From Candidatus Latescibacterota bacterium (GTDB taxonomy: Bacteria > Latescibacterota > UBA2968 > UBA8231), in contig OZ244561.1 of assembly GCA_965217585.1 (NCBI GenBank), forward strand, positions 6,688,001-6,752,000: a DNA stretch of 64,000 nt. The letters run 5' to 3'. The notes below the pieces were generated by a model. It ran no database searches and was not told the DNA's origin. It worked only from the letters and a program-made list of their open reading frames with translations. The position numbers were made by a program, and so were the translations under genes. This document shows positions 35,606-54,355 of the stretch, in pieces. Each line of letters starts with the position of its first letter. Within the stretch, counting starts at the first letter, position 1.

Positions 35606-37134
35606 TGTCCGCTGAATACGCCACTCCAGGTACCGTGTACATCGTCGGGGCTGGTCCCGGCGACCCCGGTCTGCTGACCCTCAAGGGCCTGCGTTACCTG
35701 CGCGAGGCCGGCGTCGTCCTCTACGACGACCTCCTCGACAGCCGCTTGCTCGACCTAGTACCCAACACATGCGAGCAAATTGCGGTCGGCAAACGCGGTG
35801 GCCGCAAAAGCCCCTCCCAAGACGCGATCCATGCGCTCCTCGTCGATCGCGCCCGCCAAGGCCATGTCGTCGTCCGCCTCAAAGGCGGCGATCCGTTCAT
35901 CTTCGGCCGCGGCGGCGAAGAGGCCCTGCACCTGCGTCAGGCCGGCATCCCCTTTGAAATCGTCTCTGGCGTCTCTGCGGCCTCTGGCGTCTTGGCCTAC
36001 GCGGGCATCCCCCTGACTCATCGCGGCACGGCCTCGGCCGCGCTGCTAGTCACCGGCAACGAAGATCCGGCTAAGCCCGACGCGACCATCGACTGGGATC
36101 AACTAGCGGCCTTTGACGGCACCCTCGTCATCTTCATGGCCGTCCGCAAGCTCGCCAGTATATGCCAGCATCTCGTCGCTCGAGGTCGGCCGGCCTCGAC
36201 GCCGGCTGCAGCCATTGAATGGGGCACTTGGCCCGACCAGCGCACGGTCGTCGCCGATCTCCAACACCTGCCAGCCCGCGCCGTTGCCCAGCAAATCCGC
36301 TCGCCAGCCCTCATCGCAGTCGGCCCAGTCGTCGCGCTGCGCCAAGAGCTCAACTGGTTTGAGAGCAAGCCGCTCTTTGGCCGCCGCCTGCTCGTCACCC
36401 GCAGCCGCGAACAGGCCGGTCCCCTCCAGCAGCGCCTCGAAGCCGAAGGGGCGGCCGTATCGACGCTGCCCCTCCTGCACATCGGCCCACCCGACGACTG
36501 GACGGCTGTGGATGCGGCCCAAGACCGGCTCGGAAACGCTGCTTGGGTCGTCTTCACCAGCCCCAACAGCGTGTCCTTTTTCTGTGACCGGCTCTACCAG
36601 CGCGGCCTCGACGCCCGGGCCTTTGCCCACACGCGCATCGCGGCCGTCGGCTTGGCTACGGCCGCGGCGCTGCGCCAACAGGGCTTAGTTGCCGACCTCG
36701 TGCCCCCGAGCCAATCACAGGCTGCGCTAGCGAGGGCCTTTGCCGCATTCGATGTGGCCGGCCAAGAGATCCTCTTACCGGCCTCTTCCATTGGGCGCAC
36801 CGAACTCGCCGATACCCTCGAGGCACGCGGTGCCCAAGTTTATCACCTAACGACGTACGTAAATCGCCTGCCGGACCAGGTCGAGCTCCCCACTGCGCTG
36901 GCCGAGAACAAACTCGACCTCATCGTCTTTGCCAGCCCCTCCAGCGTCCACAATTTTCATCAGGTTCTAGGATCAGAACGCGCGGAGGCCGTATTGGCCC
37001 GCACCCACATCGCCTGCATTGGTCCCACCACGGCTGCAGCCGTGCGCCAACTGGGGTTTGCCGTTCACGTGCAGCCCCGCGAAAGCAGTATCCCCTCGCT
37101 CGTCCAAGCTATCATCGCCTTCTACGCCCCGTGA
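35605..37134 (+). CDS. cobA: Uroporphyrinogen-III C-methyltransferase / synthase fusion (CobA-HemD)
   Basis: VGAGPGDPGLLT, RLKGGDPFIFGRGGEE followed by LVTR..Q, FTSPNSV, FASPSSV, IGPTT; ATG 35605 overlaps the hemC stop. Confidence 0.93.
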   Translation: MSAEYATPGTVYIVGAGPGDPGLLTLKGLRYLREAGVVLYDDLLDSRLLDLVPNTCEQIAVGKRGGRKSPSQDAIHALLVDRARQGHVVVRLKGGDPFIFGRGGEEALHLRQAGIPFEIVSGVSAASGVLAYAGIPLTHRGTASAALLVTGNEDPAKPDATIDWDQLAAFDGTLVIFMAVRKLASICQHLVARGRPASTPAAAIEWGTWPDQRTVVADLQHLPARAVAQQIRSPALIAVGPVVALRQELNWFESKPLFGRRLLVTRSREQAGPLQQRLEAEGAAVSTLPLLHIGPPDDWTAVDAAQDRLGNAAWVVFTSPNSVSFFCDRLYQRGLDARAFAHTRIAAVGLATAAALRQQGLVADLVPPSQSQAALARAFAAFDVAGQEILLPASSIGRTELADTLEARGAQVYHLTTYVNRLPDQVELPTALAENKLDLIVFASPSSVHNFHQVLGSERAEAVLARTHIACIGPTTAAAVRQLGFAVHVQPRESSIPSLVQAIIAFYAP

Positions 37135-38144
37135 AAACCTATCCAGCCGGCAAGCTGCCTCCCGCTGAATTAGGCCGTCTGCTCGCTGCCTATACCCACC
37201 GCCACGAACGCCTGCTCGTGCCGCCGACCGTAGGCGAGGACGCGGCGGTCATCGACTGCGGCGACCGCTTGCTAGTGGCCAAGACCGACCCCATCACCTT
37301 TGCCAGCGACGAGATTGGCTGGTACGCAGTCCACGTCAATGCCAACGACATTGCCGTCATGGGAGCGACGCCCCGCTTCTTTCTCAGCACCATCCTCCTC
37401 CCCGAAGAACGCGCCACGCCCGAGTTGGCGGAATCCATTTTCCGCTCCATCCACCAAGCCGCCGACAGCTTGGGCATCGCCGTCTGCGGCGGCCACACGG
37501 AGGTGACCTACGGACTCGACCGTCCCTTAGTCATCGGCCAGATGCTCGGGGAAACCACGCGCGACCGCTTGGTGCGCTCCTCGGGCTTGCGGCCCGGCCA
37601 CGCCCTGCTCCTGACCAAAGGCTTGGGCATTGAAGCCACCGCCATCATCGCCCGCGAAAAACGCGCGCAACTACGAGATCGCGGCTGTACGCCCACCTTT
37701 TTGGACGCCTGCGCCGACTTCCTCCACACGCCCGGCATCAGCGTCGTGCGCGATGCCCAAGTCGCCGTCCAAGCCGGACGAGTTACCGCCATGCACGATC
37801 CGACTGAAGGCGGAGTCGCCACGGGGCTGTGGGAATTGGCCACCGCATCTGCCGTAGGCGCAGAAATTGACTACCACGCATTGCCCATCGATTCAGCCAC
37901 AGCGCGCCTCTGCGCGGCCTTTGAACTCGATCCCCTCGGAGTGATTTCTTCGGGTGCGCTACTGATCGGCTGCACGACTAATTCCGCCGACGCTATACTC
38001 GCGGCCCTACACGACGCCAACATAGCCGCAGCCCACATCGGTACGGTCCGTCCACCTTCCTTTGGGCTTCAGCTACGCCGCGACGGCCACCTGACACCAT
38101 TGCCCACTTTCCCGGTGGACGAAATAGCGCCCCTCTTTGCCTAA
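37131..38144 (+). CDS. AIR synthase-related (PurM/HypE-like) protein
   Basis: GEDAAVI, TDPIT, NANDIA, GGHTE, MHDPTEGG. Confidence 0.88.
   Translation: MKTYPAGKLPPAELGRLLAAYTHRHERLLVPPTVGEDAAVIDCGDRLLVAKTDPITFASDEIGWYAVHVNANDIAVMGATPRFFLSTILLPEERATPELAESIFRSIHQAADSLGIAVCGGHTEVTYGLDRPLVIGQMLGETTRDRLVRSSGLRPGHALLLTKGLGIEATAIIAREKRAQLRDRGCTPTFLDACADFLHTPGISVVRDAQVAVQAGRVTAMHDPTEGGVATGLWELATASAVGAEIDYHALPIDSATARLCAAFELDPLGVISSGALLIGCTTNSADAILAALHDANIAAAHIGTVRPPSFGLQLRRDGHLTPLPTFPVDEIAPLFA
38053..38144 (+). repeat. Left 92-bp direct repeat (3' end of the AIR synthase-like gene)
   Basis: Aligns without gaps to 43739-43830 with 10 mismatches (manual count). Confidence 0.95.
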
Positions 38145-38167: not shown

Positions 38168-38278
38168 GTGCGTATCGTCGTAGACACCAACCTGCCCGAT
38201 GGCACGATCAGGCACCATGCCTTCCATAGCTACACCATGAAGCAGGCGATCCAGGCGAAAATCGCTGGTGGGACTTGA
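38168..38278 (+). pseudogene. Chimeric remnant: PIN-toxin start joined to an internal type I HsdR fragment
   Basis: VRIVVDTN (PIN N-terminus) + LPDGTIRHHAFHSYTMKQAIQ (HsdR motif HxY[ST]MKQAI). Confidence 0.6.
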
Positions 38279-38379
38279 AGATATCAGGCCCATCCCTTAG
38301 TTTGCCACCGCCTTCATTTTTGAATCACCTTTCAACTGCCCGCGACATCACTTCAACGATGTTCCCTCGGAGGGTTCCT

Positions 38380-41300
38380 TTGTCTGAAAAAATGCACGCG
38401 AAGGCATGGATTCAGCAGCAGTTACTCCATGACCTATGCACGACGTTCCCACCGCAGCCTGACCACGAGATCCACCGTGACCATCATCTCGAGACCTTCG
38501 AACGTGTGTTCGTTGGTCCTGTTGATCTGCTCGTACTTGAAGGAGATGAAGGTATCGGTAAGACAACACTCTTGTCGCAGTTCGCGAAGCGCTACCCAAA
38601 CCGAACAATCTCCTCATTTGTCACACCCATGCGGTACTACGGCTACGACACCAAGTCACTTTGGCGAGACTACTCAGCACAGATCCTGGCCATCGTGGAT
38701 CCTCGGGAATCGTTCTCATCTGAAGACGGGGGCGACGGCGTATTACAGAGTCTCATTCAAAAGCTCAAACAGCGGCATAGAAAGGACACCTATTACTTCC
38801 TACTAGATGGATTAACAGACATCGCCGACCCGATCATGAGAAGAGAAGTCGCCAGCCTTCTTCCTATTGGTCATGGTTTCCCAGTAATCGTCTCCGGTGA
38901 AGCGAGCCTACTCCCACCCGAGCTCAGGGATAGTCCACGGACAAAGACGACGCAGGCCGTCAACTTCTCTTTGGCAGAAGTCCAACAGTACTTTTCTGAT
39001 CTCGGGCTAAGTGACGCCAATATCAGGCAAATATACCAAGAATGTGGAAGGGGGGTCCCGGCCAATCTTGCAAGCGTCCGGCGTAGCTTGATTGCTGGCG
39101 TGGACTTCAATCACTTAAGTGGAAGGGGAATTAGAGATCTTTATGAACAGGAGTGGCGGAACGCTGTAACAGATGAACTCGCTGAGCAGATCGTCGCAAT
39201 CGTAGCACATTCGGGTCACCGATTAACCTTGCATTCCCTCTCTGATATCTTGGGAGTCGGGGATGACGTTGTCTCCGAGCGACTAGACCAGATTCCGTTC
39301 CTTCAACTTGATCCTGACGTCTCCTATGTTTCCTTCATCTCCCGATCGTTCGCGGATTTCGCGTCCGAAAAGCTGTCGGGGACTAAGGCCAACGTTATCG
39401 ACGTGCTTGTTGAACATTTAGAGAGGGGCACAGATGAGGGCCCGGAGGCTATTGACAGTCTTCCGGGTTACCTACAGGAGTCAGGACGGCTCGATAAGGT
39501 TATTTCCTTTCTCTCACCGGATTACTTCTCCAGCATGCTGAATAGAAGCGAATCGCTTATTCCGCTTCGAAGGCAACTCCAGATTGGCATCGACGCAGCA
39601 GCAGAACTTCGCCAGGACGGTGAGCTTGTGCGTTTCGGATTAGAGAGTAGCGCGATCAGGGAGATTGAAACTGCACAGGTTTCTCGCTTTGAGATCGAGG
39701 CGTTGGTAACGACTGACCAAGTGTCAGAGGCTCTCTCCTTCGCTGCCAACTGCTCACTACGGGAGGATCGGCTTCATTTGCTAGGGGTGATCGCTCGGTG
39801 TCAGAAAGAGCGAGGGACGCCCCCTAGCGAGGAGATTCTCGATCAGATCCGACAGCTCCACGGTCAGATTGATGCGAAGTCTCTTGGTGATAAAGCCATA
39901 GACATCGCAGCTGATCTCTTTCCGTGCTGTCCAGACCTAGCGGTTAGCTTGATCGAGCAAAGTTCTTGGGCGGACGGCGACGAAAACGAGTTGGACATCG
40001 CGTACGTTCGTCTTTCCATAGCGACGGCTGTACACGGGACAGTGCCGAGAAGTGATCAGGACGACCTTGAGACGATCCAAAAACGGATAAGAAATCCCAG
40101 GTTACGCGGTTTTACCTCTGCTCTGTCCGGGAAAGTCCAATCGGCGGCCGAGGTAATCGCCGAGGCAGAGAAGCTTGGGACAGCTTCTGATAAGTTGTAC
40201 ATCCTGAGGGAATGGGCTATAGAACATTCGACGAGAGAGGATGCGCTGGATGTGGCGGAGTACGGCCTTAGGACAGTTGTGGAGGCTACGGGATACGCTC
40301 CTAACGTGCGGGTTCTTCGAGAACTCTCATCCCCTTTGCTCCATGCCAAGGATCTCGCTAGGACACAGTCATTGGTAAGGGCCTTCGACGGACAGCGCAC
40401 GACCGTTGAGGACCAAGGACCAACGGAAGAAGTAGTCAGGCTCCAGTTGAACCTCGCGGTTGCGGAATCTCTTTTTGATGAGGAAGCGTGTGTGAACCGG
40501 CTGGTGGAAGTCTTTCTGAGCGTGCACGAGTTGGCAGATCTTTCGACCAAGTCAAGCTGTCTCGCAAGGCTATTATCTGCGCTACGAATTATTGACTCGT
40601 CTGGGCGAATCGAGGATAAGGAGCACCTAACGTCCCTCTCCACCGAAGAACTGGACACGGCGATATCCAACTTGTTGGCCCACACGGCCCAACAAGTCGA
40701 TGTCACCCGTAGGATCATCGACGCGCTAGGGGCCTTAGACGTCGGTCGCAGTATTGCCCTCGCAGAGAACCTGAATACAGCAAATCGTCGGGAGCAAGCT
40801 CTACTGTTGGCCGTAGACGCCATCCTGGAGAGCGATTCGGACCATATCGACCTGAAGCGTCTTAGGGAAGCGTGCAAAAACCTTCGAAAGCGCGAGTCTC
40901 TAGATCATGTTGCAGCAGCAGTAGCAGAGTACCTGGCACGGCGGGACTCAATTGACCAAGAAGCAATCGTAGAGTCTGGATTCCAGCTCTTCCAAGATCT
41001 TTTCTTCTCCGTTTCCGATCCGATGGAGCGATGTCGGGTGCTATGTCTGCTCTACGGCTTGGGAGAGCAAGGCCTATCGGCATCAGAGGCCATGCTTCTT
41101 GATCTGTTAAAACGGATCGAGGAAGCCATTACAGAGGTTGAGGCGGGGTGGGGCCGAATTGACGCAGGATTTCGAGTCGCTCGTTCCTTTGCTAACCGGA
41201 ACCCGACACAGGCGAAGAGGTATCTCGATGACGCCGAAGATGAGCGCAAAAGGACTGCGCTTTCCTCATTCTCTTCTGAGTGGACTTATCAAGCATGTTT

Positions 41301-43302
41301 GCGGTTGTCAATCCGCGCGTTCTCAGGTCAGCTCGGTCGTGGATATGATCCCGAGGACGATATGTCGAGACTAGGACGGTTAATAGACCAGCTCCCAAGC
41401 ACGTCTCTGCGAGTGCAGCTATGGGGTGAACTTGCTATGCACCTCTTTCTGCAACAGCATTCCGATGCCGGCAACCGTGTGGTGAGCGAGCGCGTCGTCC
41501 CGCTGATAGATTCCATGCCTAAGGGGCCGGCAAAAGAAAGCACTATCATAGGCGTTTCACCCGCGTTGTACCGAAATCACAAGACTACCGCCCTTCGGCT
41601 CTTCGAGGCCATAGAAGGCAATCAGCGGGATAGAGCACTCATGACCTGTGCTAAGTTTATACTGGAGCAACATATTCCCTCGGATCCATACGAGGAACAC
41701 GAAAACGGGTACGATATCATATACCAAGACGCCGTCGATGTAGTTGAACTGGCGAGCGAGCTTAGTCAGGACAATATGGTATATATACTGATCGTAGCGC
41801 TCGCTGATACTCTCTCATCATCTCAGTTTTCCATTACCAGGCAACAAGAAGCGGAGCTTGTTCGACGTATTGAGAACCTTGTCGCTGACAAGTTCCCCGA
41901 TCAAGACAACATCCAACATGACGGGTACGGAATCGCAAGCGAAGCGCAGTTATTGCGGATCGGGCGACATAAACGCCAATCTTGGCTTAACGTGATAAAA
42001 CGCGCACAGTCAATCCCGAATATGTCTGATCGAGCTTTTGTGTTGGCCATTATCGGCCAAGTCCTACCGGCTCGGGAGGGGACCCATCGGGAGCGCGTGT
42101 TCGAAGAGGCTATACATGTCACGGGAGCCATCCCTTGCACCTATGATCGACTTATGCGGTTAAACGATCTGGCCGGAATGATGGCACAGAAGTGTCCCCG
42201 TCTGGCACGGAAATGCCTCTCTGAGGCCGTCGGGAGATTTCAGTATGCTGAGGATGGCCCAAATGTCCGTGTCTTTAGGGATGTGATTGACACTGCCTTC
42301 AAATTCGACGCAGACTTCGCTGCGTCACTTGTTTCTCTTGGGGATGACGACCCTGCTCGGGCGATGGGCCGACACGAGATGAAACGTCGCCTAGAAATGC
42401 TGCGCGCAAAAAAAGCTATAATCGACGGACCGGAGTCATGGGACGAGTTCGGACCAGAAAACTCAGACTTTCCTCGCTCCACTTGGCTTGCCCTGGGATC
42501 ACTGAACGCTGGACGGGTGCATACGGCATCGGTAGATCAGCTCAGGCTGGCGCTTCGCGCCGCCGGACAGTTTGCGCTTCACGACGGATTTCCCATCCTA
42601 GCCTGGGTTATCGAAAACGCGGTACGCCGATTTTCCGGAACTTCTCAGTCACGGTCGATGATTCGTGTAATCTTCGAGGGTGCGATGCGTGCAACGGAGT
42701 TTGTGGAAATAGCGGGGGCAAGCGCTTCGGCCACAGTCCGGCGCGGAACCTTAGCGGAAAGTACCCCACCGAGCGAAGAAAGCATGGTGGTAAAGGTCGG
42801 TGAAAGAGACCGCGCAGTGGAGTTCTTGCGGCGGTGGTTGCAGCAAACGGAGTTGGAACGCCTCTATATCTGTGATCAGTACTTCGGCCCGGCGGAGCTT
42901 GCTCTTCTGATGTTAATTCAATCAGAGGTTCCAGATATAGAAGTGGTAGTCCTCACCAGTCGACATTGCCAGGAGCAGCGCCAGATAAAATCCCTGTATG
43001 AAGCCTATAGAACGGGCTGGCAGAAGATCTCTGATCAGAATCCGCCGAAAGCAGAAATCGTTGTCGTCGGATTGGAGGAATCAGGGAAATCGCCTATTCA
43101 TGACCGAAGCATTTTGACTGAGCAAAGTGGGATTAGCCTTGGGACCTCGTGGAACTCACTTGGCTTATCGCAGGATTCGGTCATTAGAGTGCTGTCCGAG
43201 AGGGAAGCGTCTGATCTGTTTGAACACGCTAGTCAGTTTCTCCTAGAGAGAAGGCGTGAGTATCGCGGAGAGCGATTACGCTACGAAACGGTAACACTGT
43301 AA
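38380..43302 (+). CDS. Large STAND-like P-loop NTPase with helical repeats and C-terminal PLD-like (HDR) nuclease domain
   Basis: GDEGIGKTT, YFLLDG, long alpha-helical region, C-terminal YICDQYF...SPIHDRSIL...LGTSWNSLG; SD GGAGG 6 nt before TTG 38380; lower GC than flanks. Confidence 0.75.
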   Translation: MSEKMHAKAWIQQQLLHDLCTTFPPQPDHEIHRDHHLETFERVFVGPVDLLVLEGDEGIGKTTLLSQFAKRYPNRTISSFVTPMRYYGYDTKSLWRDYSAQILAIVDPRESFSSEDGGDGVLQSLIQKLKQRHRKDTYYFLLDGLTDIADPIMRREVASLLPIGHGFPVIVSGEASLLPPELRDSPRTKTTQAVNFSLAEVQQYFSDLGLSDANIRQIYQECGRGVPANLASVRRSLIAGVDFNHLSGRGIRDLYEQEWRNAVTDELAEQIVAIVAHSGHRLTLHSLSDILGVGDDVVSERLDQIPFLQLDPDVSYVSFISRSFADFASEKLSGTKANVIDVLVEHLERGTDEGPEAIDSLPGYLQESGRLDKVISFLSPDYFSSMLNRSESLIPLRRQLQIGIDAAAELRQDGELVRFGLESSAIREIETAQVSRFEIEALVTTDQVSEALSFAANCSLREDRLHLLGVIARCQKERGTPPSEEILDQIRQLHGQIDAKSLGDKAIDIAADLFPCCPDLAVSLIEQSSWADGDENELDIAYVRLSIATAVHGTVPRSDQDDLETIQKRIRNPRLRGFTSALSGKVQSAAEVIAEAEKLGTASDKLYILREWAIEHSTREDALDVAEYGLRTVVEATGYAPNVRVLRELSSPLLHAKDLARTQSLVRAFDGQRTTVEDQGPTEEVVRLQLNLAVAESLFDEEACVNRLVEVFLSVHELADLSTKSSCLARLLSALRIIDSSGRIEDKEHLTSLSTEELDTAISNLLAHTAQQVDVTRRIIDALGALDVGRSIALAENLNTANRREQALLLAVDAILESDSDHIDLKRLREACKNLRKRESLDHVAAAVAEYLARRDSIDQEAIVESGFQLFQDLFFSVSDPMERCRVLCLLYGLGEQGLSASEAMLLDLLKRIEEAITEVEAGWGRIDAGFRVARSFANRNPTQAKRYLDDAEDERKRTALSSFSSEWTYQACLRLSIRAFSGQLGRGYDPEDDMSRLGRLIDQLPSTSLRVQLWGELAMHLFLQQHSDAGNRVVSERVVPLIDSMPKGPAKESTIIGVSPALYRNHKTTALRLFEAIEGNQRDRALMTCAKFILEQHIPSDPYEEHENGYDIIYQDAVDVVELASELSQDNMVYILIVALADTLSSSQFSITRQQEAELVRRIENLVADKFPDQDNIQHDGYGIASEAQLLRIGRHKRQSWLNVIKRAQSIPNMSDRAFVLAIIGQVLPAREGTHRERVFEEAIHVTGAIPCTYDRLMRLNDLAGMMAQKCPRLARKCLSEAVGRFQYAEDGPNVRVFRDVIDTAFKFDADFAASLVSLGDDDPARAMGRHEMKRRLEMLRAKKAIIDGPESWDEFGPENSDFPRSTWLALGSLNAGRVHTASVDQLRLALRAAGQFALHDGFPILAWVIENAVRRFSGTSQSRSMIRVIFEGAMRATEFVEIAGASASATVRRGTLAESTPPSEESMVVKVGERDRAVEFLRRWLQQTELERLYICDQYFGPAELALLMLIQSEVPDIEVVVLTSRHCQEQRQIKSLYEAYRTGWQKISDQNPPKAEIVVVGLEESGKSPIHDRSILTEQSGISLGTSWNSLGLSQDSVIRVLSEREASDLFEHASQFLLERRREYRGERLRYETVTL

Positions 43303-43738: not shown

Positions 43739-43830
43739 CACCTTCCTTCGGACTTCAGCTACGCCGCGAAAGCCATCTGACGCCATTACCCACTTTCCCG
43801 GTGGACGAAATCGCCCGCCTCTTTGCCTAA
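43739..43830 (+). repeat. Right 92-bp direct repeat (orphan gene 3' end)
   Basis: Encodes PSFGLQLRRESHLTPLPTFPVDEIARLFA*, versus ...RRDGHLTPLPTFPVDEIAPLFA* in the gene. Confidence 0.95.
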
Positions 43831-43903
43831 TCGCGGCCCGGCCAGTTATCTTGACATCGGCTACGAGAGCGGTAACGCAGCGATAGAGTAGGGAGGAAAT
43901 GCA

Positions 43904-46900
43904 ATGTATAGGGAGCCTTGTAGGAGATCGGGACAAGCAGTAGCCATCACGGCGCTGGCGCTTGGAATGGCCATGTGCAGCCTGTCCCACGCCAATCTCT
44001 CCCCCCCGGCCGTGGTCTGGTGGTCGGCACCGATCCTGCCCGGTGAAATCGTCCTCCTGCACGGCGGGGACTGGGGCGGCGATCCCAAGGTGCAGATAGC
44101 GTCGATCCGCGACGCCGAGCCGGGCGAGGCGGCTACGGGGCGTGCACCCATCATCGGTGATGTGCGCGTCCTTGTCCCCATCCACCGCACAGAGACCGGC
44201 CTCAGTTTCGTCCTGCCGGAGACGCCGGAAGGCCTGCATATATGTCGGGTCATTTCGGGCGTGCGCGGGCCCTCAGCGCCTTTCGTCCTGAACGAGCCAG
44301 CCCCGTGGTGGGTCCAAGGTGATCGCGGACGAGCGGCATCGCCCGGCGGATGGCTGCGTGTCTTCGGTCGCTGCCTCTCCTTCGACGCAAAGGCGCAGAT
44401 GGCCCTGAAGCGGGGCAACGACCACATCGAACTGCCCCTTCAGCAACAGGACTCGTGGTCGGTGACGGCCCCCCTGCCGACGAAGCTGACGCCGGGGGCA
44501 TACGAGGTCTTCGTCCACAATGGCTACGGCGGCCCGGCCGGTTGGCGCCGCGCGGGAACCGTGGACATCGCCGTGCACGAGGAGGTCTGGGAGGATCGGG
44601 TCTTCGACGTCGTCGATTTCGGCGCCGTGCCCAATGACCGGGGCGGCGACACCCAGGCCCTGCGCGCAGCCCTAGCGGCGGCTGGCCAGAACGGCGGCGG
44701 CATCGTCCACCTGCCGCGAGGCCGCTACCAGATCCACGGCACCTTGGAGATTCCCCCGTTCACTTTGCTGCGGGGCGAGTCCCTAGAGCTGAGTCAGCTC
44801 TACTGGCCGGACGCGCAGAAGCCACCGGCGGCGTTGATCAAAGGCAGCCATAACTTCGGAGTGGAAGACCTGTTCATCACGTCTGGGAACTATCTGAATG
44901 GCATCGTCTCCGGTCGTCTAGCCGACCCCACGAGCGGGCGGGTCCTCATTCGCCGGGTCCGGATGCGCCTTTTGCGGGATCAGTACGTCAGCGCCGAGGA
45001 ACGCCTTCGTCGCCATAGCCTGCCGGGCCACGCCCTAGACCTCGAAGGCGAGTTCGTCCGCGTCATCGACTGCGACATCGCGACCAGTGGCCGCGGCGGG
45101 AGCTTTGCGCTGCGCGTCCGCTACGGACAGGTCGCTGGCAACCGGTTTATCAACGGCGGCAACTCCATCTCCGGCTCGGAGAACCTGATCTTTGAGAACA
45201 ACACCGTGACCGGCGGCGGCGTCAGCGCGACCCCTGCGCCGCTCTACCAGCGCAACATCTACTTCGCCAACAACCGCCTAGAGCGCAACTTCGCCCACGA
45301 CCGCGAGGCCATGACCCTCGACGGCGGTGCCCACACCTATCTTGGTGCCGTGACTAACGTGGCAGGTACCCGCCTCGTGCTCGCCGATGAGAGCATGACC
45401 TGGCGCAATGGTGCCGATCACTGGATCAACGGCGGCATCATGATCTTCGCCGGCCGAGGCGCGGGCCAGCTACGGCGCATCCGCCGTATCGACAGCAGAA
45501 CCGTCGAAGTGGATCGGCCTTGGATCATCGAGCCCGACGACAGCTCCCTGATTGTGATCTCCTACTTCCGCGAGCGCCACCTGTTCGTCGGCAACCGCAT
45601 CGAGGACGCCACCATTGCCCTGCAGCTCTACGGCTCCCTCATCGAAGGGATCGTGGCGGGCAATACGAGTGCCCGGGCCGGTGGGTTCCACAACTTCGGC
45701 ATGTGGAAGGGCGGCGGGCCCGAGCCCTCCTGGTACGTCCAGTATCTCGACGACGAGATCCTCGAGGGGAATGCCTACCGCGGCCCCATGAACGAGATCC
45801 CGTCGCTCGACTCGCATCTGGCCATCCGGGACCGCGGGTACTCGCAAACGGACTACTCTTTCACTCGCACCTGCCTGGCTCGGCGCTGCATTCTGCGCAA
45901 CAACGCCCGCATCGAGGTGCTCGGCAACGGCATCGCCGACAACGTCCTCATCGAAAACTGCTTGGTCGAAAACGCCGACGTCGGGCTGCACGTGGATTCG
46001 CGCGCCCAGGGCGTGATCCTGCGGGGCAACCGCTTCGACAACGTCCTCCAGCCCATGACCGGCGCTATCGAGCGCGCCGTCACCCATCCGGCCGATTGCG
46101 TACTCGCCGCCCTGTCCGGCACCCAAGCACAGCTCGGCGCAGGGGCACCCGCCGCCTGGGCCCGAATCCAGAGCAAGCTCGCAACACTTGCCGTTGAGGG
46201 GGACCTAGCGTCCAAGGCCACGGCGGCAAAAGCCAGGGCCTTCCTCGCAGAAGCAGTCTCTGCACTAGCGTCCGACGGTTCAGAGGAATACACCGCTGAC
46301 TTGATGCGGACCCTGCTGGGCATCGACGTCGCGATTGAGACGGACGCCCTCGCCTCCGCCGCGACGACGGGCAAGGCGACCTCCGTGCCCGCGCAGGTAG
46401 CCGTCCCCCCATGGTCGCTGCCGGTGTCGGTTGCGCTGCGCGTCGATCCGTTTCCCGGGTGGACGGTGGAATCGGGCCCGGCCCAAGCGGTCGAGCCGGG
46501 CGGAACCGCCCATTTTGCCCTGCAAACCGCCGGCCCCAAGCGACCGGCCGGCCCCTTCGACCGGCCCTTTACCTACGACGTGCACGGCGACGGCTGGCGG
46601 TTGTCATTCACCGACCACGCCGGGCCGGCACGGCTCACTGTCACCGACTGGCTCGTCGTGGGGCCCTTCGAGAACGAGAGCGGCGGGGTCATCGACAAGA
46701 CCGTGCATCCCCCAGAACTGAAGCTGGACGTAACCGCCCGCTACGAGACCCGGGACGGCGTGAAGGGCTGGAAGCCAATCCACACTACCGCCGACGGGAG
46801 GCTCGATCTGGCCGCCCATTTTGCGGACGCGGATCGGGCCGTCGCCTACGCCGCGGCTTGCGTGCGCGCGGCCCGTGACACTCCGGCGATGGTCACCTAT

Positions 46901-47194
46901 GCCGGCATGACCTCCACGGACGGGGTCATGCTCTACGTCAACGGGCAGCGAATCGGCACGCGCTGGCGCTTCAACCAGTGGGGCCCGACGCTGCTGCGAC
47001 AGGGAGACAACGTCGTCTTCGCCGTGCTTTCCAACCTCGACCGCGACTGGCGGGCAGGCATGCAGGTGGAACCGATGGCTCCCCTCGCCCCCGGCGAGCT
47101 CATCGCCGTCCCCGCCGACAAGCTCTCCGACGTGGCGGCCCTGAAGAGTGCAGTCGAAGCGGTACCGGAAGGCCGGGCCCGTGGACTCGACTGA
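43904..47194 (+). CDS. Secreted right-handed beta-helix (pectate lyase-superfamily/GH28-related) protein
   Basis: Signal peptide; VFDVVDFGAVPND..DT.AL..AL...GGGIVHLPRGRY; Asn-ladder repeats; C-terminal WLVVGPF module. Confidence 0.8.
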   Translation: MYREPCRRSGQAVAITALALGMAMCSLSHANLSPPAVVWWSAPILPGEIVLLHGGDWGGDPKVQIASIRDAEPGEAATGRAPIIGDVRVLVPIHRTETGLSFVLPETPEGLHICRVISGVRGPSAPFVLNEPAPWWVQGDRGRAASPGGWLRVFGRCLSFDAKAQMALKRGNDHIELPLQQQDSWSVTAPLPTKLTPGAYEVFVHNGYGGPAGWRRAGTVDIAVHEEVWEDRVFDVVDFGAVPNDRGGDTQALRAALAAAGQNGGGIVHLPRGRYQIHGTLEIPPFTLLRGESLELSQLYWPDAQKPPAALIKGSHNFGVEDLFITSGNYLNGIVSGRLADPTSGRVLIRRVRMRLLRDQYVSAEERLRRHSLPGHALDLEGEFVRVIDCDIATSGRGGSFALRVRYGQVAGNRFINGGNSISGSENLIFENNTVTGGGVSATPAPLYQRNIYFANNRLERNFAHDREAMTLDGGAHTYLGAVTNVAGTRLVLADESMTWRNGADHWINGGIMIFAGRGAGQLRRIRRIDSRTVEVDRPWIIEPDDSSLIVISYFRERHLFVGNRIEDATIALQLYGSLIEGIVAGNTSARAGGFHNFGMWKGGGPEPSWYVQYLDDEILEGNAYRGPMNEIPSLDSHLAIRDRGYSQTDYSFTRTCLARRCILRNNARIEVLGNGIADNVLIENCLVENADVGLHVDSRAQGVILRGNRFDNVLQPMTGAIERAVTHPADCVLAALSGTQAQLGAGAPAAWARIQSKLATLAVEGDLASKATAAKARAFLAEAVSALASDGSEEYTADLMRTLLGIDVAIETDALASAATTGKATSVPAQVAVPPWSLPVSVALRVDPFPGWTVESGPAQAVEPGGTAHFALQTAGPKRPAGPFDRPFTYDVHGDGWRLSFTDHAGPARLTVTDWLVVGPFENESGGVIDKTVHPPELKLDVTARYETRDGVKGWKPIHTTADGRLDLAAHFADADRAVAYAAACVRAARDTPAMVTYAGMTSTDGVMLYVNGQRIGTRWRFNQWGPTLLRQGDNVVFAVLSNLDRDWRAGMQVEPMAPLAPGELIAVPADKLSDVAALKSAVEAVPEGRARGLD

Positions 47195-47295: not shown

Positions 47296-47964
47296 ATGAT
47301 GATAAAATTCACTCTTTTACTTTTGACCTTATACTTGGGCACATCACCTGTTTTTGCACAGGAAACGCAAGCGGATTCTACGCGGAGTGAACGGCCGACA
47401 TTTTCGCTGACGCCTACCTGAGTGGGCTGACCTGGCGAAGGCGCACCACTCCGGGGGAGTGGTATTCATACGAAATTTGCACTTTCGGGGCGGTATGTAG
47501 ATACATCAATGGACCGTCCGCAATGGCGGTTTACCGCCAATTACCGCCTGCATCAACGCCTGCAAGTTGGGGTTGAGTTGAATCCAAAAGCAAAAGAGGC
47601 AGGACCTCTTGTGACCCTGTTTTTGCTAACCGAGACAGAGACGCGTCCGGCGCTTTTTTTGGGCACGAGCTCAGATCGAATTGGTTCGCCGGCGGGCGAG
47701 CAGTCTTACTTCGCGACTATAAGTAAATATATACCTCGGTGGCGCACTTCTTTTTACGGCAGTTTGAATTATTCGGAATGGGATGGGAAGTTCAATATTC
47801 CCTTTGGCGTGGGGGTTGAATTGGGCAAAGGCTTTTCATTGCGACCGATGTATGATGGCGATCGGGGGCATGTGATGCTGAATTATTTCGCCACGCAATA
47901 CGGTGTCAGTTTGATGTATGTGTGGCTTGAAACCATGGGTATTTCGTTTTCTCTTGGATTTTAG
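47296..47964 (+). CDS. Putative exported selenoprotein with UxxU motif and outer-membrane beta-barrel (222 aa)
   Basis: ATG 47296 is in frame with ORF 47509..47964; signal peptide MMIKFTLLLLTLYLGTSPVFA; only interruptions are TGA 47419 and TGA 47428 (T-U-V-G-U-P); amphipathic strands and terminal Phe. Confidence 0.75.
47445..47463 (+). promoter_or_regulatory. SECIS-like hairpin
   Basis: ACCACTCC-GGG-GGAGTGGT perfect stem with G-rich apical loop, 22 nt after the second and 31 nt after the first TGA. Confidence 0.65.
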
Positions 47965-47976
47965 TGTGGAGGATCA

Positions 47977-48660
47977 ATGCGTTATTGTAATTTTTTATTT
48001 CTAATTGTTCTGGCAAGTTCGGCTACGCTTATAGCTGAAGCTCAGATTCCCGCTAAGGCACTTTGTAGTGTCTGTGCATTAAAGGGCGGCGAGACAGAGT
48101 TGGAAAAGGTCAAGGCCCATTCGGAACACGATGGCAAGGCGTACTATTTTTGTTCCGAAAACTGTAAAAAAGAATTCGACTCAGATCCCGTGGCTTATTT
48201 ACCACCGGTATTTCCACGACCTGCACCAGCCTGCGTCATTGAAATGCTGGAGGGCGGGGACAAGGCGTTGGGGGATTTGCAGGACAAAGTTGTGCTCGTA
48301 GATTTTTGGGCGACATGGTGCGAACCTTGTCTTGAGACAATGCCCCGGTTGCAAAAACTCTACAGCGCTTATTCCGCTAAGGGTTTTGACGTTTGGGGGG
48401 TGTCTATAGATGAGGACAAAGATCGGGTCGAGAAGATCAAAAAGATGGTGGACAAAATGGATATTTCTTATCCCATCTTTGTAGATACGAAACAGACGCC
48501 CGCTTGGTATCAGTTTAAGGTGAAAGCGATTCCTGCGATGTATCTTCTCGATGGAGAAAGTCAGATCGTAGCGCAGTGGACGGGAAAGATAGATTACGAG
48601 GAAGTGGAGAAGGAAGTCTTGCGACGGTTAGAAAAAAGGCTCAAAGTTGAAGGGCCATGA
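47977..48660 (+). CDS. Exported YHS-domain + TlpA-like thiol:disulfide oxidoreductase
   Basis: Signal peptide; CSVC...YYFCSENCKKEF (YHS/TRASH); DFWATWCEPC; cis-Pro AIP. Confidence 0.9.
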   Translation: MRYCNFLFLIVLASSATLIAEAQIPAKALCSVCALKGGETELEKVKAHSEHDGKAYYFCSENCKKEFDSDPVAYLPPVFPRPAPACVIEMLEGGDKALGDLQDKVVLVDFWATWCEPCLETMPRLQKLYSAYSAKGFDVWGVSIDEDKDRVEKIKKMVDKMDISYPIFVDTKQTPAWYQFKVKAIPAMYLLDGESQIVAQWTGKIDYEEVEKEVLRRLEKRLKVEGP

Positions 48661-48711: not shown

Positions 48712-49788
48712 CTACCGCAACCACCAATGCAGCACATTGGTCATGTGTTCCTCATAAGCGTGAGAAGCCTGAATGAGCAATCGTTCAGCCTCGGCTGTAT
48801 GCGGGTTCCTGACGATCAGGTTGTTGGAGTAGGCGCCAGCGCCCGCTTCGCCCATGCGAAGATAACGGCCGGCGTCCCAACTCACTCCATCATGCGAGGT
48901 ATAGAGGACCAAGTGATTCCTCCCCTCGCCTTGGTTGCCACTGCGGCCGTGCAGAACAAAGGCGTCCTTGAACGCGGCCATCTGGGGATTGCGAATTTTC
49001 TTCGCCATGAAGGCCGTTTGCACGGTGCTCCACGTGCAACCACCGTCGTCGCTGGTCGCGTAGTCGAGATGCTTTTCGTCATTGATGTTGTAGACATAGG
49101 CGATAAGCCGGCCGTCGGGCAGAGTGGCCATGGTCCCGTAGCCGCGTCCCTGAACGTCGAAGGGAAGGATGCTGCGTTGGGAGAAGGTAAGACCATTGTC
49201 CTGGCTGACATGGAGAGCATAATGGTGCTCCGGCAGGTTGCCGTACCAATGGACTGTGCTGTCGTTGCATAACTCCAGGACGAGAATGCAGCCTTCGTGA
49301 AGAACTACATCCCAGATGCGTGCGGGCTCATCGCCCATGGGTTTTGCCGGTTCCCAGGTGAAACCGCAATCGGTGCTGCGCAGATAGGTCGGAACCGCCA
49401 GTGGCTGCCAGCCCTTGCCCCGGCACTCCAGGTTGAACAGGAGGATCGCTCCATCGTCGGTTCGCAGCGCCTTTTCGCACATGACCGAGTGCCCGACACC
49501 TTGGTCGTAGGTCTGCTTTGAGTGCGCAAGAGCGGCGGGCTCGCTCCAAGTACGTCCGCCGTCCTCGGAACGCTTGAATTCCATCCAGCCATCCCCGCTG
49601 TGGCCCTGCTGAAAATCGGAGCAGTTGGCGTAGAATGCCAGTATCTTACCCGGCGCGTACTCGACTAGGGCATGACCCAAGTGACCACTGCGACCGGCCT
49701 TGGCATGATCCACAAACACGATCCCCTGATTGGGCGGCTCAGGTGGTTCAACTACAAACCTGTCTATATCAGTGTCTTTGCGATCCAT
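48712..49788 (-). CDS. Sialidase-like BNR/Asp-box protein
   Basis: Asp boxes SEDGGRTW, STDCGFTW, SQDNGLTF, SDDGGCTW, SHDGVSW. Confidence 0.85.
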   Translation of the reverse strand: MDRKDTDIDRFVVEPPEPPNQGIVFVDHAKAGRSGHLGHALVEYAPGKILAFYANCSDFQQGHSGDGWMEFKRSEDGGRTWSEPAALAHSKQTYDQGVGHSVMCEKALRTDDGAILLFNLECRGKGWQPLAVPTYLRSTDCGFTWEPAKPMGDEPARIWDVVLHEGCILVLELCNDSTVHWYGNLPEHHYALHVSQDNGLTFSQRSILPFDVQGRGYGTMATLPDGRLIAYVYNINDEKHLDYATSDDGGCTWSTVQTAFMAKKIRNPQMAAFKDAFVLHGRSGNQGEGRNHLVLYTSHDGVSWDAGRYLRMGEAGAGAYSNNLIVRNPHTAEAERLLIQASHAYEEHMTNVLHWWLR

Positions 49789-49979
49789 TGCAGATTCCTT
49801 TCGCTTAATGAGTCTTAAATTAACTCGCCCAGCCAATATGGCCAGTGGCGCGGTGTGCACCCGGGGTGCCCGACACCGAGGACTGCCCTGACTCTTGCCT
49901 GCGCTCAGCGCCTTGACAGAGAATCCCCCAAAGGGCCTTTATTATACCCGAACTTCGCTCCCGAAACCCAGTAAATCCC

Positions 49980-52901: not shown

Positions 52902-53198
52902 CTACACTTTGGCCGGAAGAGGTTGGATAGTGATTTTGAAATCATGCCCCAAGATACCGAGGATATTGAAAAGTACATCGAAGCTAATTTTTCCGATCTT
53001 GGTCCTATTTTCAATCTGGGCAATGCGCGGTTGGGAGACGCCGACCATCTCGGCCAATTGGCCTTGCGTCAAGCCAAATCGCTTTCTACTCTTCACGATC
53101 TTTTCGATGAGCTGTTCTTTCTGGCGTAGTTCGTTAATATTGACGCCGAGTTCCTCTGCCCATTGCTCAATGTTTACCTTTTCCCAAGGCATTTTCAA
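52902..53198 (-). CDS. XRE-family HTH antitoxin (HigA-like)
   Basis: GLTQGQLAEMVGVSQPRIAQIE; downstream of the toxin. Confidence 0.88.
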   Translation of the reverse strand: MKMPWEKVNIEQWAEELGVNINELRQKEQLIEKIVKSRKRFGLTQGQLAEMVGVSQPRIAQIENRTKIGKISFDVLFNILGILGHDFKITIQPLPAKV

Positions 53199-53527
53199 AT
53201 CTCCTTCAGTCTTCTGAGAATCAGCCGTCTATCCTTATCGGGAATGGTTTCGGTCTTTTTTTGCAGCACATGAACCAGATAAATTGCATCCCCGCGCTTG
53301 ATGAAATAGAAAACTCGATAGATACTGCGCCGTTCTTTGAAGCGCAGTTCGTGTAAACCGAGAGCAATATTGAACAGCGGCTTGCTCAACGGCATCTCCA
53401 GGCTTTCCCCCTGCTTCAACCGATCAAGTGCCAAGAAGAAATCCTCCTGTAGGCTTTGAGATAATCCCTCGACAAATTTCTTGATCGGCGAATTGCCTGA
53501 AGCAGTGGTATAGTAGAGGATTTCCAT
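53195..53527 (-). CDS. RelE/ParE (Gp49/HigB-like) toxin
   Basis: YYTTASGNSPIKKF, LHELR, YRVFY, KKT. Confidence 0.88.
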   Translation of the reverse strand: MEILYYTTASGNSPIKKFVEGLSQSLQEDFFLALDRLKQGESLEMPLSKPLFNIALGLHELRFKERRSIYRVFYFIKRGDAIYLVHVLQKKTETIPDKDRRLILRRLKEI

Positions 53528-53720: not shown

Positions 53721-53963
53721 ATGGTTGTCGCCAAACTAACCTCCAAAGGACAACTGGTCATTCCCCAAGCCATACGCCAGCATCTGCACCTACAGCAGGG
53801 CGACAGCGTGGATTTTATCATCCAAGACGATGGCGAAGTGGTCGTCAGACCGGCCACCCGGGATGTGCGAGAACTAAAAAATATCCTGCCGCAACCCAAG
53901 AAGGCCGTATCGCTAGCGGAAATGGATCGCGCGGTGCGCGAGGGCGCGGCAAAAGCGCTGTGA
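53721..53963 (+). CDS. AbrB/MazE-type antitoxin
   Basis: LTSKGQLVIP..IR..L.L..GD. Confidence 0.9.
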   Translation: MVVAKLTSKGQLVIPQAIRQHLHLQQGDSVDFIIQDDGEVVVRPATRDVRELKNILPQPKKAVSLAEMDRAVREGAAKAL

Positions 53964-54355
53964 GGGGGCTGGATACCAATGTGCTGGTGCGCTATCTGGT
54001 GCAGGACGATGCGGTCCAGGCGCGGCGCGCGGCAAAAGAGATCGAAGCGGGATCGGATGCGGGCGAGATCTATTTTATTGCCGACGTCGTCGTCTGCGAA
54101 CTGGTGTGGGTGCTCGATCGGGCCTATGGATACAGCCGGGCGCAGATTGGCGACGCGCTGGAGGGTATTTTGCAGACGCGCTCATTTCATTTTGTCGACA
54201 AAGACCTGCTCTGGCAGGGGCTAGGCGATTACAAAAAGGGCAGGGGCGACTTTGCCGATTATGCGATTGGGCGCGTGGGCGAAAAGTCCGGGTGCGAAAA
54301 AACGCTAAGTTTTGATCGCGCTTTAAAAGGCGATGTACGATTTGAAGTGCTTTAG
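53960..54355 (+). CDS. VapC PIN-domain toxin
   Basis: LDTNVLVR, E..WVL, DFAD, SFD. Confidence 0.9.
   Translation: MRGLDTNVLVRYLVQDDAVQARRAAKEIEAGSDAGEIYFIADVVVCELVWVLDRAYGYSRAQIGDALEGILQTRSFHFVDKDLLWQGLGDYKKGRGDFADYAIGRVGEKSGCEKTLSFDRALKGDVRFEVL

Follow-up and report, generated by a model that had tools for sequence, protein, structure and literature searches.

Can a short gene that is broken by two in-frame TGA codons encode a full-length membrane protein, and what would such a protein do beside an exported thioredoxin-like neighbour? This is the question raised by a locus in the 64,000-nucleotide stretch of DNA analysed here (the window), which was taken from the forward strand of a Candidatus Latescibacterota genome (GenBank assembly GCA_965217585.1, contig OZ244561.1, positions 6,688,001 to 6,752,000). 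An earlier note, made from the letters alone, read the first gene of the locus (gene 1) as a putative selenoprotein, a barrel with a U-x-x-U motif (UxxU, where U is selenocysteine, Sec), and the second (gene 2) as an exported fusion of a YHS domain to a TlpA-type thioredoxin. In the present work, we follow up these readings and conclude that a two-selenocysteine barrel family with a dedicated YHS-TlpA partner is real and apparently undescribed. The features of the locus, in window coordinates, are these:

47296..47964, + strand: gene 1, predicted exported UxxU selenoprotein with a predicted 12-stranded outer-membrane beta-barrel; 222 codons, TAG stop
47299, + strand: alternative start of gene 1, the second ATG, which may be the true start
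47296..47358, + strand: putative signal peptide of gene 1, residues 1-21, judged from a hydrophobic core and a VFA/Q site read by eye
47419..47421, + strand: TGA codon 42, likely selenocysteine, opposite the first CxxC cysteine of homologue P0152 in the alignment
47428..47430, + strand: TGA codon 45, likely selenocysteine; aligned with the CxxC of Cys homologues
47445..47463, + strand: hairpin of the selenocysteine insertion sequence (SECIS) type; 8-base-pair stem, GGG loop, -11.7 kcal/mol
47476..47961, + strand: barrel domain from the predicted structure, residues 61-222, last residue Phe
47968..47972, + strand: GGAGG ribosome-binding site, inside the 12-nucleotide gap 47965-47976
47977..48660, + strand: gene 2, signal peptide, YHS domain and TlpA/ResA-type thioredoxin domain; 227 amino acids
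48064..48165, + strand: YHS cysteines C30, C33, C59 and C63, invariant among partners
48316..48330, + strand: TlpA active site W-C115-E-P-C118 (WCEPC, residues 114-118)

Reading of the two TGA codons

Relatives of gene 1 were taken as the best 80 of 170 genome loci and the best 80 of 236 metagenome loci, the latter set being partly redundant. Three of these 160 loci end before the motif, and UxxU stands at the site in all of the others (79/79 genome and 78/78 metagenome loci); the codons at the two positions are always TGA, never TAA or TAG. With the motif kept in 157 of 157 loci that cover it, the selenoprotein frame proposed in the earlier note is borne out. The frame and signal peptide 5' of the TGAs are conserved among homologues, which also have hydrophobic leaders, and the structural model of gene 1 has an N-terminal helix. 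In the distant homologue P0152 (29% identity over 213 residues, E 3e-29) a CxxC aligns exactly to UxxU.

The host genome carries tRNA-Sec, SelA, SelB and SelD. Presence of SelA does not discriminate between carriers and non-carriers of the motif: it was found in 35/35 and 4/5 UxxU carriers (two sets) yet also in 18/20 non-carriers of the same phylum. Among genomes with a distant CxxC-type barrel it was found in one of four, two of the negatives being 68% and 80% complete.

The legend to Fig. 2 of PMC13188914 describes the bacterial SECIS (bSECIS) as a loop of 3-9 nucleotides containing a G on a stem of 4-16 base pairs, placed 16-37 nucleotides from the UGA and with an energy of at most -7.5 kcal/mol. 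The hairpin of gene 1 lies within all four ranges for both codons, at distances of 31 and 22 nucleotides. Across 66 close sequences (the window and 65 of the 79 genome loci that cover the motif) 99% of cells are paired, with two-sided changes at two third-codon positions, and across 28 distant Acidobacteriota sequences and the window 85% are paired, with two-sided changes at five of the eight pairs, although some seven of the distant sequences have a weaker stem. The covariation score of the distant set was reached by none of 500 shuffles and slid controls scored lower, figures that relatedness can raise. The folding z-score of the single sequence varies with the stretch chosen (-0.2 to -3.2) and was left out as evidence.

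From these sequence comparisons, the two TGAs almost certainly encode selenocysteine. That they are instead stops, separating a leader peptide from a short barrel gene, or tryptophan codons is hardly credible: database products are mostly truncated, a few full-length entries carry W at the sites (P0027, P0056) and read-through is predicted from sequence, but no signal peptide is present in the truncated products, whose annotated starts vary, the upstream frame and its signal peptide are conserved, Cys homologues exist, the hairpin covaries and the sites never hold TAA or TAG. Tryptophan recoding of TGA was considered separately; the use of TGG at 407 codons of the same genes, 35 of 79 of which terminate with TGA, rules it out.

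The reading also accounts for the obscurity of the family, which would be hidden in databases by gene callers that truncate it at the two UGA codons. A standard listing of open reading frames catches merely the final 151 residues of gene 1, and the database copies (610 matches) are mostly fragments of 130-166 amino acids that start 3' of the TGAs. With Sec read as Cys, no family in Pfam or NCBIfam matched gene 1 at E <=0.1, the strongest signal across the family being OMP_b-brl (E 0.028, in 2 of 77 members); a sequence search of the PDB gave no chain matching gene 1 or its alignments, and ten distant homologues had no NCBIfam or Pfam match at 1e-5.

Three further observations concern selenium. 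The database protein P0132 has C-x-x-W at the motif and may be a CxxU form translated under a TGA=Trp code. Elsewhere in the host genome two redoxin-like frames carry a stop at the active-site position (G000:C1:2235240-2235530, FFGFI*SHC, and 4566292-4566510, FFGFN*PAC) and are, judged by sequence, probable further candidates for UxxC selenoproteins. Within the window, 9 kilobases (kb) upstream, lies an AIR-synthase/SelD-like gene (37131-38144; TIGR00476, E 1.9e-26, below its cut-off).

The predicted barrel, its partner and their linkage

An AlphaFold model of gene 1, built from a 54-sequence input with Sec entered as Cys, places 12 strands within residues 61-222 at a mean predicted local distance difference test score (pLDDT) of 80.7; most of the barrel scores 84-92 and residues 41-60 score about 60. 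Polar and apolar faces alternate along the strands, and the chain ends on F222. When the model was compared with 48,161 PDB representatives, the top fold matches were all outer-membrane barrels: the COG4313 channel (4RL8; Z 16.2, root-mean-square deviation (rmsd) 2.6, 164 residues aligned), FapF (5O65; Z 16.0, rmsd 2.6, 171 aligned), KdgM (Z 15.4, rmsd 2.6, 152 aligned) with NanC (Z 13.3), and the autotransporter barrels AIDA-I (Z 14.9), EstA (Z 13.8) and NalP (Z 13.1). PcoB appears at rank 26 (Z 8.8, rmsd 4.2, 150 aligned), below many unrelated barrels. The barrel that the earlier note had assumed is thus upheld by prediction, and on the strength of this model gene 1 is very probably an outer-membrane barrel.

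There are hints, of low confidence, that the arm bearing UxxU lies at or inside the pore, since the alignments to COG4313 and FapF reach into it (they begin at model residues 44 and 32, respectively) and residues 89-101 of FapF are described as a plug that reaches the lumen from the periplasmic side (PMC5557850). Other small barrels of the phylum (L215-L219) gave weak profile matches (E ~1e-4) and were not counted as members; one of them matches YjbH, a hint of remote kinship with YjbH-type barrels.

Gene 2 follows after 12 nucleotides (47965-47976) that hold a GGAGG ribosome-binding site (47968-47972), as had been noted, and its description as an exported YHS-TlpA fusion stands. Behind a hydrophobic N-terminus come the CSVC (30-33) and FCSENC (58-63) motifs; Pfam assigns YHS (PF04945) to residues 46-77 (E 3.8e-9, 36.8 bits against a gathering cut-off of 30.3) and AhpC-TSA/Redoxin to residues 82-203 (E 5e-19), the latter containing WCEPC; a zf-FCS match is weak (E 0.013). 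The protein has the attributes of the TlpA/ResA-like group (thioredoxin fold family, WCxPC, cis-Pro and export leader) and lies below the curated cut-offs for TlpA (NF047696, 62.7 against 230 bits) and ResA (NF002854, 89.6 against 170 bits). The four YHS cysteines are invariant in 46/46 linked partners and in 25/25 sequences of alignment A5, and CxPC is present in all 107 partner motifs read. An unlinked YHS-TlpA of a Poribacteria genome (L101:1156-1908) has lost one YHS cysteine and adjoins genes for a BlaI/CopY-type repressor and an M56 peptidase.

The linkage of the two genes recurs well beyond the window. A YHS-TlpA gene stands 3' of the barrel in 52 of the 80 genome loci and is absent in 26, two loci being too short to tell. 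The unlinked loci comprise 22 from Poribacteria, one broken copy and three others, so that outside Poribacteria linkage holds in 52 of 56 assessable genome loci; for two of those three others, and for a Poribacteria genome whose contig stops after the barrel, the partner was found on another contig. Metagenome loci divide into 64 linked, 10 unlinked and 6 short. Linked records are labelled Latescibacterota, Gemmatimonadota, Planctomycetota, Calditrichota and Deferribacterota, with further ones labelled Acidobacteriota, Eisenbacteria, Myxococcota and Bacteroidota. Within the window's own class (61 genomes), all 12 genomes with a full or near-full barrel match have the partner, a thirteenth has it next to a barrel remnant, and none of the 43 genomes without any barrel match gave a strong partner match. 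At genus level, deletions in several copies run from one gene into the other.

Fusions lend the association independent weight. Matches were found in 36 of 401 Acidobacteriota genomes, and 30 loci were returned. In 23 of these a single frame encodes a signal peptide, in some cases a Cys-rich domain, then TlpA, a linker and the UxxU barrel, with no YHS domain; in four, a YHS-like domain precedes the UxxU barrel and the gene lies immediately 3' of a YHS-TlpA gene; three are plain. Two further loci beyond these are also TlpA fusions, and in Armatimonadota five cluster representatives join YHS repeats to a CxxC barrel. A search for longer fused proteins found none; the TGAs split such fusions, or their products are shorter than the length window allowed, and they surfaced only through profile and genome searches. 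Among the fusions read, no single chain combined YHS, TlpA, UxxU and the barrel. Distances among barrels and among partners correlate (mirror-tree r 0.92, 46 pairs), as expected from shared ancestry, and this was not counted.

The linkage on which the earlier note relied is thus confirmed elsewhere, by adjacency, by co-deletion and by fusion to TlpA or YHS, and these sequence patterns argue strongly that the products of genes 1 and 2 work together. Some variants stand beside this pattern. Many TlpA-UxxU-barrel fusions (L231, L233-L236, L242, L246-L249, L273 and others) start with an extra domain of about 110 residues that has a CxxC and further cysteines (G-Q-V-x-C-x-x-C-W...) and, in the two cases scanned, matched no Pfam family. 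A more distant barrel subfamily (L213:7407-8060, L214, L270, L271) has an N-terminal C-G-P-x-C-P-x-C and no TGA. In one genome a PhoX phosphatase gene sits between barrel and partner (L020:6817-8184).

The history of the site is a separate matter. The earlier note was right that both genes are AT-rich: their guanine-plus-cytosine (GC) fractions are 0.49 and 0.47, against 0.67 and 0.58 in the flanking genes and 0.595 in the genome, and only 1.8% of genome tiles of equal size are as low. Its view of the pair as a transferred cassette finds no support as far as recent transfer goes. Twelve genomes of the same genus have a match; in eight of them the pair, or what is left of it, borders on DNA corresponding to window positions ~43740-43870 or from 49963 onwards, and the GC-rich genes at 43904-47194 (a pectate-lyase-like beta-helix protein) and 48712-49860 (a BNR-repeat protein) are missing from six and five of those loci, respectively. 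Since these anchors are shared while the GC-rich neighbours come and go, the AT-rich pair is, by its sequence context, the older resident of the site and the flanks are variable inserts. Barrel GC is below that of the flanks in most loci labelled Latescibacterota and near it in other phyla, the closest relatives of gene 1 are within the same group (88-94% identity), and a quick tree (midpoint-rooted, two broken rows excluded, and unable to date transfer) groups the sequences largely by phylum; an older acquisition by an ancestor is possible.

In the genus the pair is also decaying. Seven of the 12 copies are broken by nonsense codons, by deletions across both genes or by insertion (among L002-L019: G002, G008, G010, G013, G022, G027, G029), and 18 of 30 genomes have no match; the pair looks dispensable in the habitat of this lineage. 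Contigs from four RNA-library runs (two studies) cover both genes; their identity is mostly <95%, so they stem from relatives. One crosses the gene junction (47842-48103), and such cover is compatible with a DNA origin or with separate transcripts. The gene downstream of the pair has no cover in the four runs, which proves nothing, and promoter and terminator scans around the pair gave nothing usable. Elsewhere in the window are a 1675-amino-acid protein (38275-43302, GC below that of the genome) with an N-terminal P-loop (GDEGIGKT) and long helical repeats, which we take to resemble a defence-type NTPase, and two toxin-antitoxin-like pairs recognised by eye (52902-53527 and 53721-54355; RelE/ParE-like with helix-turn-helix, and AbrB-like with PIN-like).

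What the pair may do

The pair points to an envelope system that is likely to handle a soft metal, copper for example. Outer-membrane barrels with an even number of strands have their N-terminus in the periplasm, and gene 1 would accordingly present its two selenocysteines on a periplasm-side arm of a 12-stranded barrel. Electrons would arrive through a membrane protein of the DsbD/CcdA type (the genome has one DsbD_TM gene), the periplasmic TlpA domain would reduce the U-x-x-U diselenide and keep the pair reduced, and the selenolates could then bind a soft metal, most likely Cu(I), at the mouth of the pore. YHS domain and pore would exchange the metal, and the channel would open or close upon oxidation or metal binding. 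We hold this mechanism as a whole tentatively, at a little short of an even chance. A bolder formulation, in which a diselenide/selenolate switch on a plug gates an outer-membrane channel that a thioredoxin opens or loads and a YHS metallochaperone feeds, giving soft metals a route, is more speculative.

Several lines of evidence point to metal. In one enzyme a YHS domain is reported to be a probable copper sensor (PMC4626032), and TlpA-type proteins are reported to reduce Cys pairs ahead of copper loading (PMC6669012). Nine of the 23 TlpA fusions have 5-9 His within the 70 residues before UxxU, and the N-terminal region of PcoB is likewise reported to be His-rich (PMC12509749); the modules that recur on the barrel (YHS domains and His-rich linkers) are likely metal-binding. 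We also compared 16 Acidobacteriota barrel loci (<=11 kb each), the ones among 28 wide loci that yielded a control, with 16 arbitrary stretches of the same genomes; open reading frames were called by our own heuristic and NCBIfam was applied to selected test genes only. Metal or metalloid genes occur in six barrel loci and in no control (Fisher p 0.018): a multicopper oxidase with CDF, VIT1 with FTR1, ChrA/ChrB, CusA/CzcB-like genes, a heavy-metal P-type ATPase and ArsS. Beyond the 16, metal or metalloid genes also occur in L257, L268 and L275, and the CxxC barrel of L214 sits 3' of TolC-CusB-CusA-like genes on the same strand. Because the nearby metal genes are mostly resistance genes, export or detoxification is slightly favoured as the direction. 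As a single case, selenoneine biosynthesis genes (SenA-like and SenB, L250:78-2086) lie about 3 kb from a TlpA-UxxU-barrel fusion, which itself adjoins genes for a multicopper oxidase and a CDF transporter.

A number of points weigh against such a metal system. The neighbourhood test is small, its category was chosen after viewing the loci and kin are not independent; p rises to 0.083 when CutA1 of a control is counted and to 0.23 for strict copper, zinc or cadmium genes (3/16). Binding, electron transfer and transport by the pair are inferred from sequence. The four invariant YHS cysteines could form a structural zinc site, and the best fold matches of the modelled barrel are not metal channels. 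Natural UxxU diselenides are hard to reduce. Diselenides are reported to be more stable than disulfides (PMC5514408), and therefore a CxPC thioredoxin may reduce this one poorly. No third gene recurs beside the pair across 79 close genome loci, compared as unannotated clusters of open reading frames. Finally, the barrel has no neighbouring partner in any of the 22 assessable Poribacteria loci, and no YHS-TlpA was found in five of five such genomes, which gave generic TlpA domains only; this speaks against an obligate pair.

Three other accounts were weighed. The first, which we consider possible though rather unlikely, is a redox relay, in which electrons pass from TlpA through the UxxU arm to a small oxidant or a sulphur or selenium compound traversing the pore (peroxide, polysulfide, disulfide, selenite or an arsenical), the YHS cysteines being a structural zinc site or part of the relay. 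No partner is more constant than TlpA, whether it lies next to the barrel or is joined to it; pairs of Sec are a typical feature of oxidoreductases (PMC13188914, section 7); the close family has no conserved metal-resistance neighbour; and some loci lie near genes for ArsS/ArsM, peroxiredoxin, AhpD-like proteins, DsbA/DsbB or SenA/SenB. It sits less well with YHS modules that turn up in three architectures, Cys forms with several YHS copies and no TlpA among them, with the His-rich linkers, or with an arm that is not a thioredoxin fold.

Less probable again is a stable diselenide with a structural or gating role in the plug, which TlpA would not cycle; the barrel would pass an unrelated solute while TlpA maintained the YHS cysteines of its own chain, or some other target in the periplasm, in reduced form. 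The persistence in Poribacteria of barrels that lack a partner but have an intact UxxU and hairpin is what this account would lead one to expect, although several generic TlpA domains there could substitute, and the closest folds belong to plugged channels that carry organic solutes or peptides. Diselenide stability also speaks for it; the same source, however, states that thiols exchange fast with exposed diselenides (PMC5514408), and 23 fusions attach TlpA to the arm and have no YHS domain. It is improbable that the barrel is an autotransporter-like anchor which threads the UxxU arm, with any fused TlpA or YHS domain, to the cell surface to bind metal or reduce extracellular substrates there: autotransporter translocator domains are among the close fold matches and the fusions run in passenger-linker-barrel order, but the barrel has only some 160 residues with very short loops, the partner in the window is a separate protein and a TlpA domain requires periplasmic electron donors.

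Should the proposed metal system prove correct, it would represent a redox-controlled outer-membrane channel, a case for asking why a diselenide is used in the oxidising periplasm, and a selenium-based route for soft metals across the outer membrane in many uncultured phyla. The two-gene unit is small and its natural Cys forms allow Sec to be compared with Cys.

Comparison with known systems

The family is a widespread two-Sec addition that corresponds to no model in Pfam or NCBIfam and to no entry in the 2026 list of 119 prokaryotic selenoprotein families. Table 1 of that list (PMC13188914) includes two barrel selenoproteins and three UxxU families, and none of its entries, compared by description and not aligned one by one, fits gene 1; the passages of PMC9312934 consulted likewise contain no family of this architecture. 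Full-text searches, which covered few subscription papers, gave no description of a UxxU/YHS-TlpA barrel family among the papers listed, and supplementary selenoprotein lists could hold one.

The two barrel selenoproteins of Table 1, the GSU2204-family MtrB/PioB-type protein (NF041027) and the FCYXU-type TonB-dependent receptor (NF049945), likewise have a predicted Sec in an outer-membrane barrel. They have one Sec each and neither model matches gene 1 at E <=0.1, whereas gene 1 encodes a minimal 12-strand barrel that bears a UxxU arm and is served by a dedicated TlpA. The UxxU families in the same table (Prx-like PF00578, metal-binding NF041115 and the FmdB-family regulator TIGR02605) also have CxxC homologues. 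The motif has so far been catalogued there in soluble redox or metal-binding domains, either a thioredoxin fold or a small soluble domain; in gene 1, which none of them matches, it precedes a predicted outer-membrane barrel.

The nearest folds, namely COG4313, FapF, KdgM/NanC and the autotransporter barrels, share only 6-15% identity with gene 1, and for COG4313, FapF and KdgM there is no family match at the sequence level. To our knowledge, none of these barrels has a Sec or Cys pair on its plug. True homologues are the uncharacterised YHS-repeat-CxxC-barrel proteins of Armatimonadota (for instance MCA0361030.1 and MCB0824974.1; 29% over 213 residues), named only 'YHS domain-containing protein', which differ in having Cys rather than Sec, a YHS domain that is fused and repeated, and no TlpA.

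With respect to function, two systems offer the closest parallels. PcoB resembles gene 1 in being a small barrel of the outer membrane, and it has an N-terminal region rich in His and a partner in the periplasm (PMC9210255, PMC12509749); gene 1 has no PcoB/CopB sequence match in Pfam, NCBIfam or the PDB, a Sec or Cys pair in place of His and Met, and YHS-TlpA rather than PcoA as its partner. The TlpA of Bradyrhizobium, which acts with ScoI and CoxB, is a periplasmic CxPC thioredoxin that reduces Cys pairs for copper loading (PMC6669012); gene 2 lies far below the equivalog cut-off of that family, has an added YHS domain and would have an outer-membrane selenoprotein as its likely target. In the metal system that we propose, the pair would function like PcoB plus TlpA while being a member of neither family.

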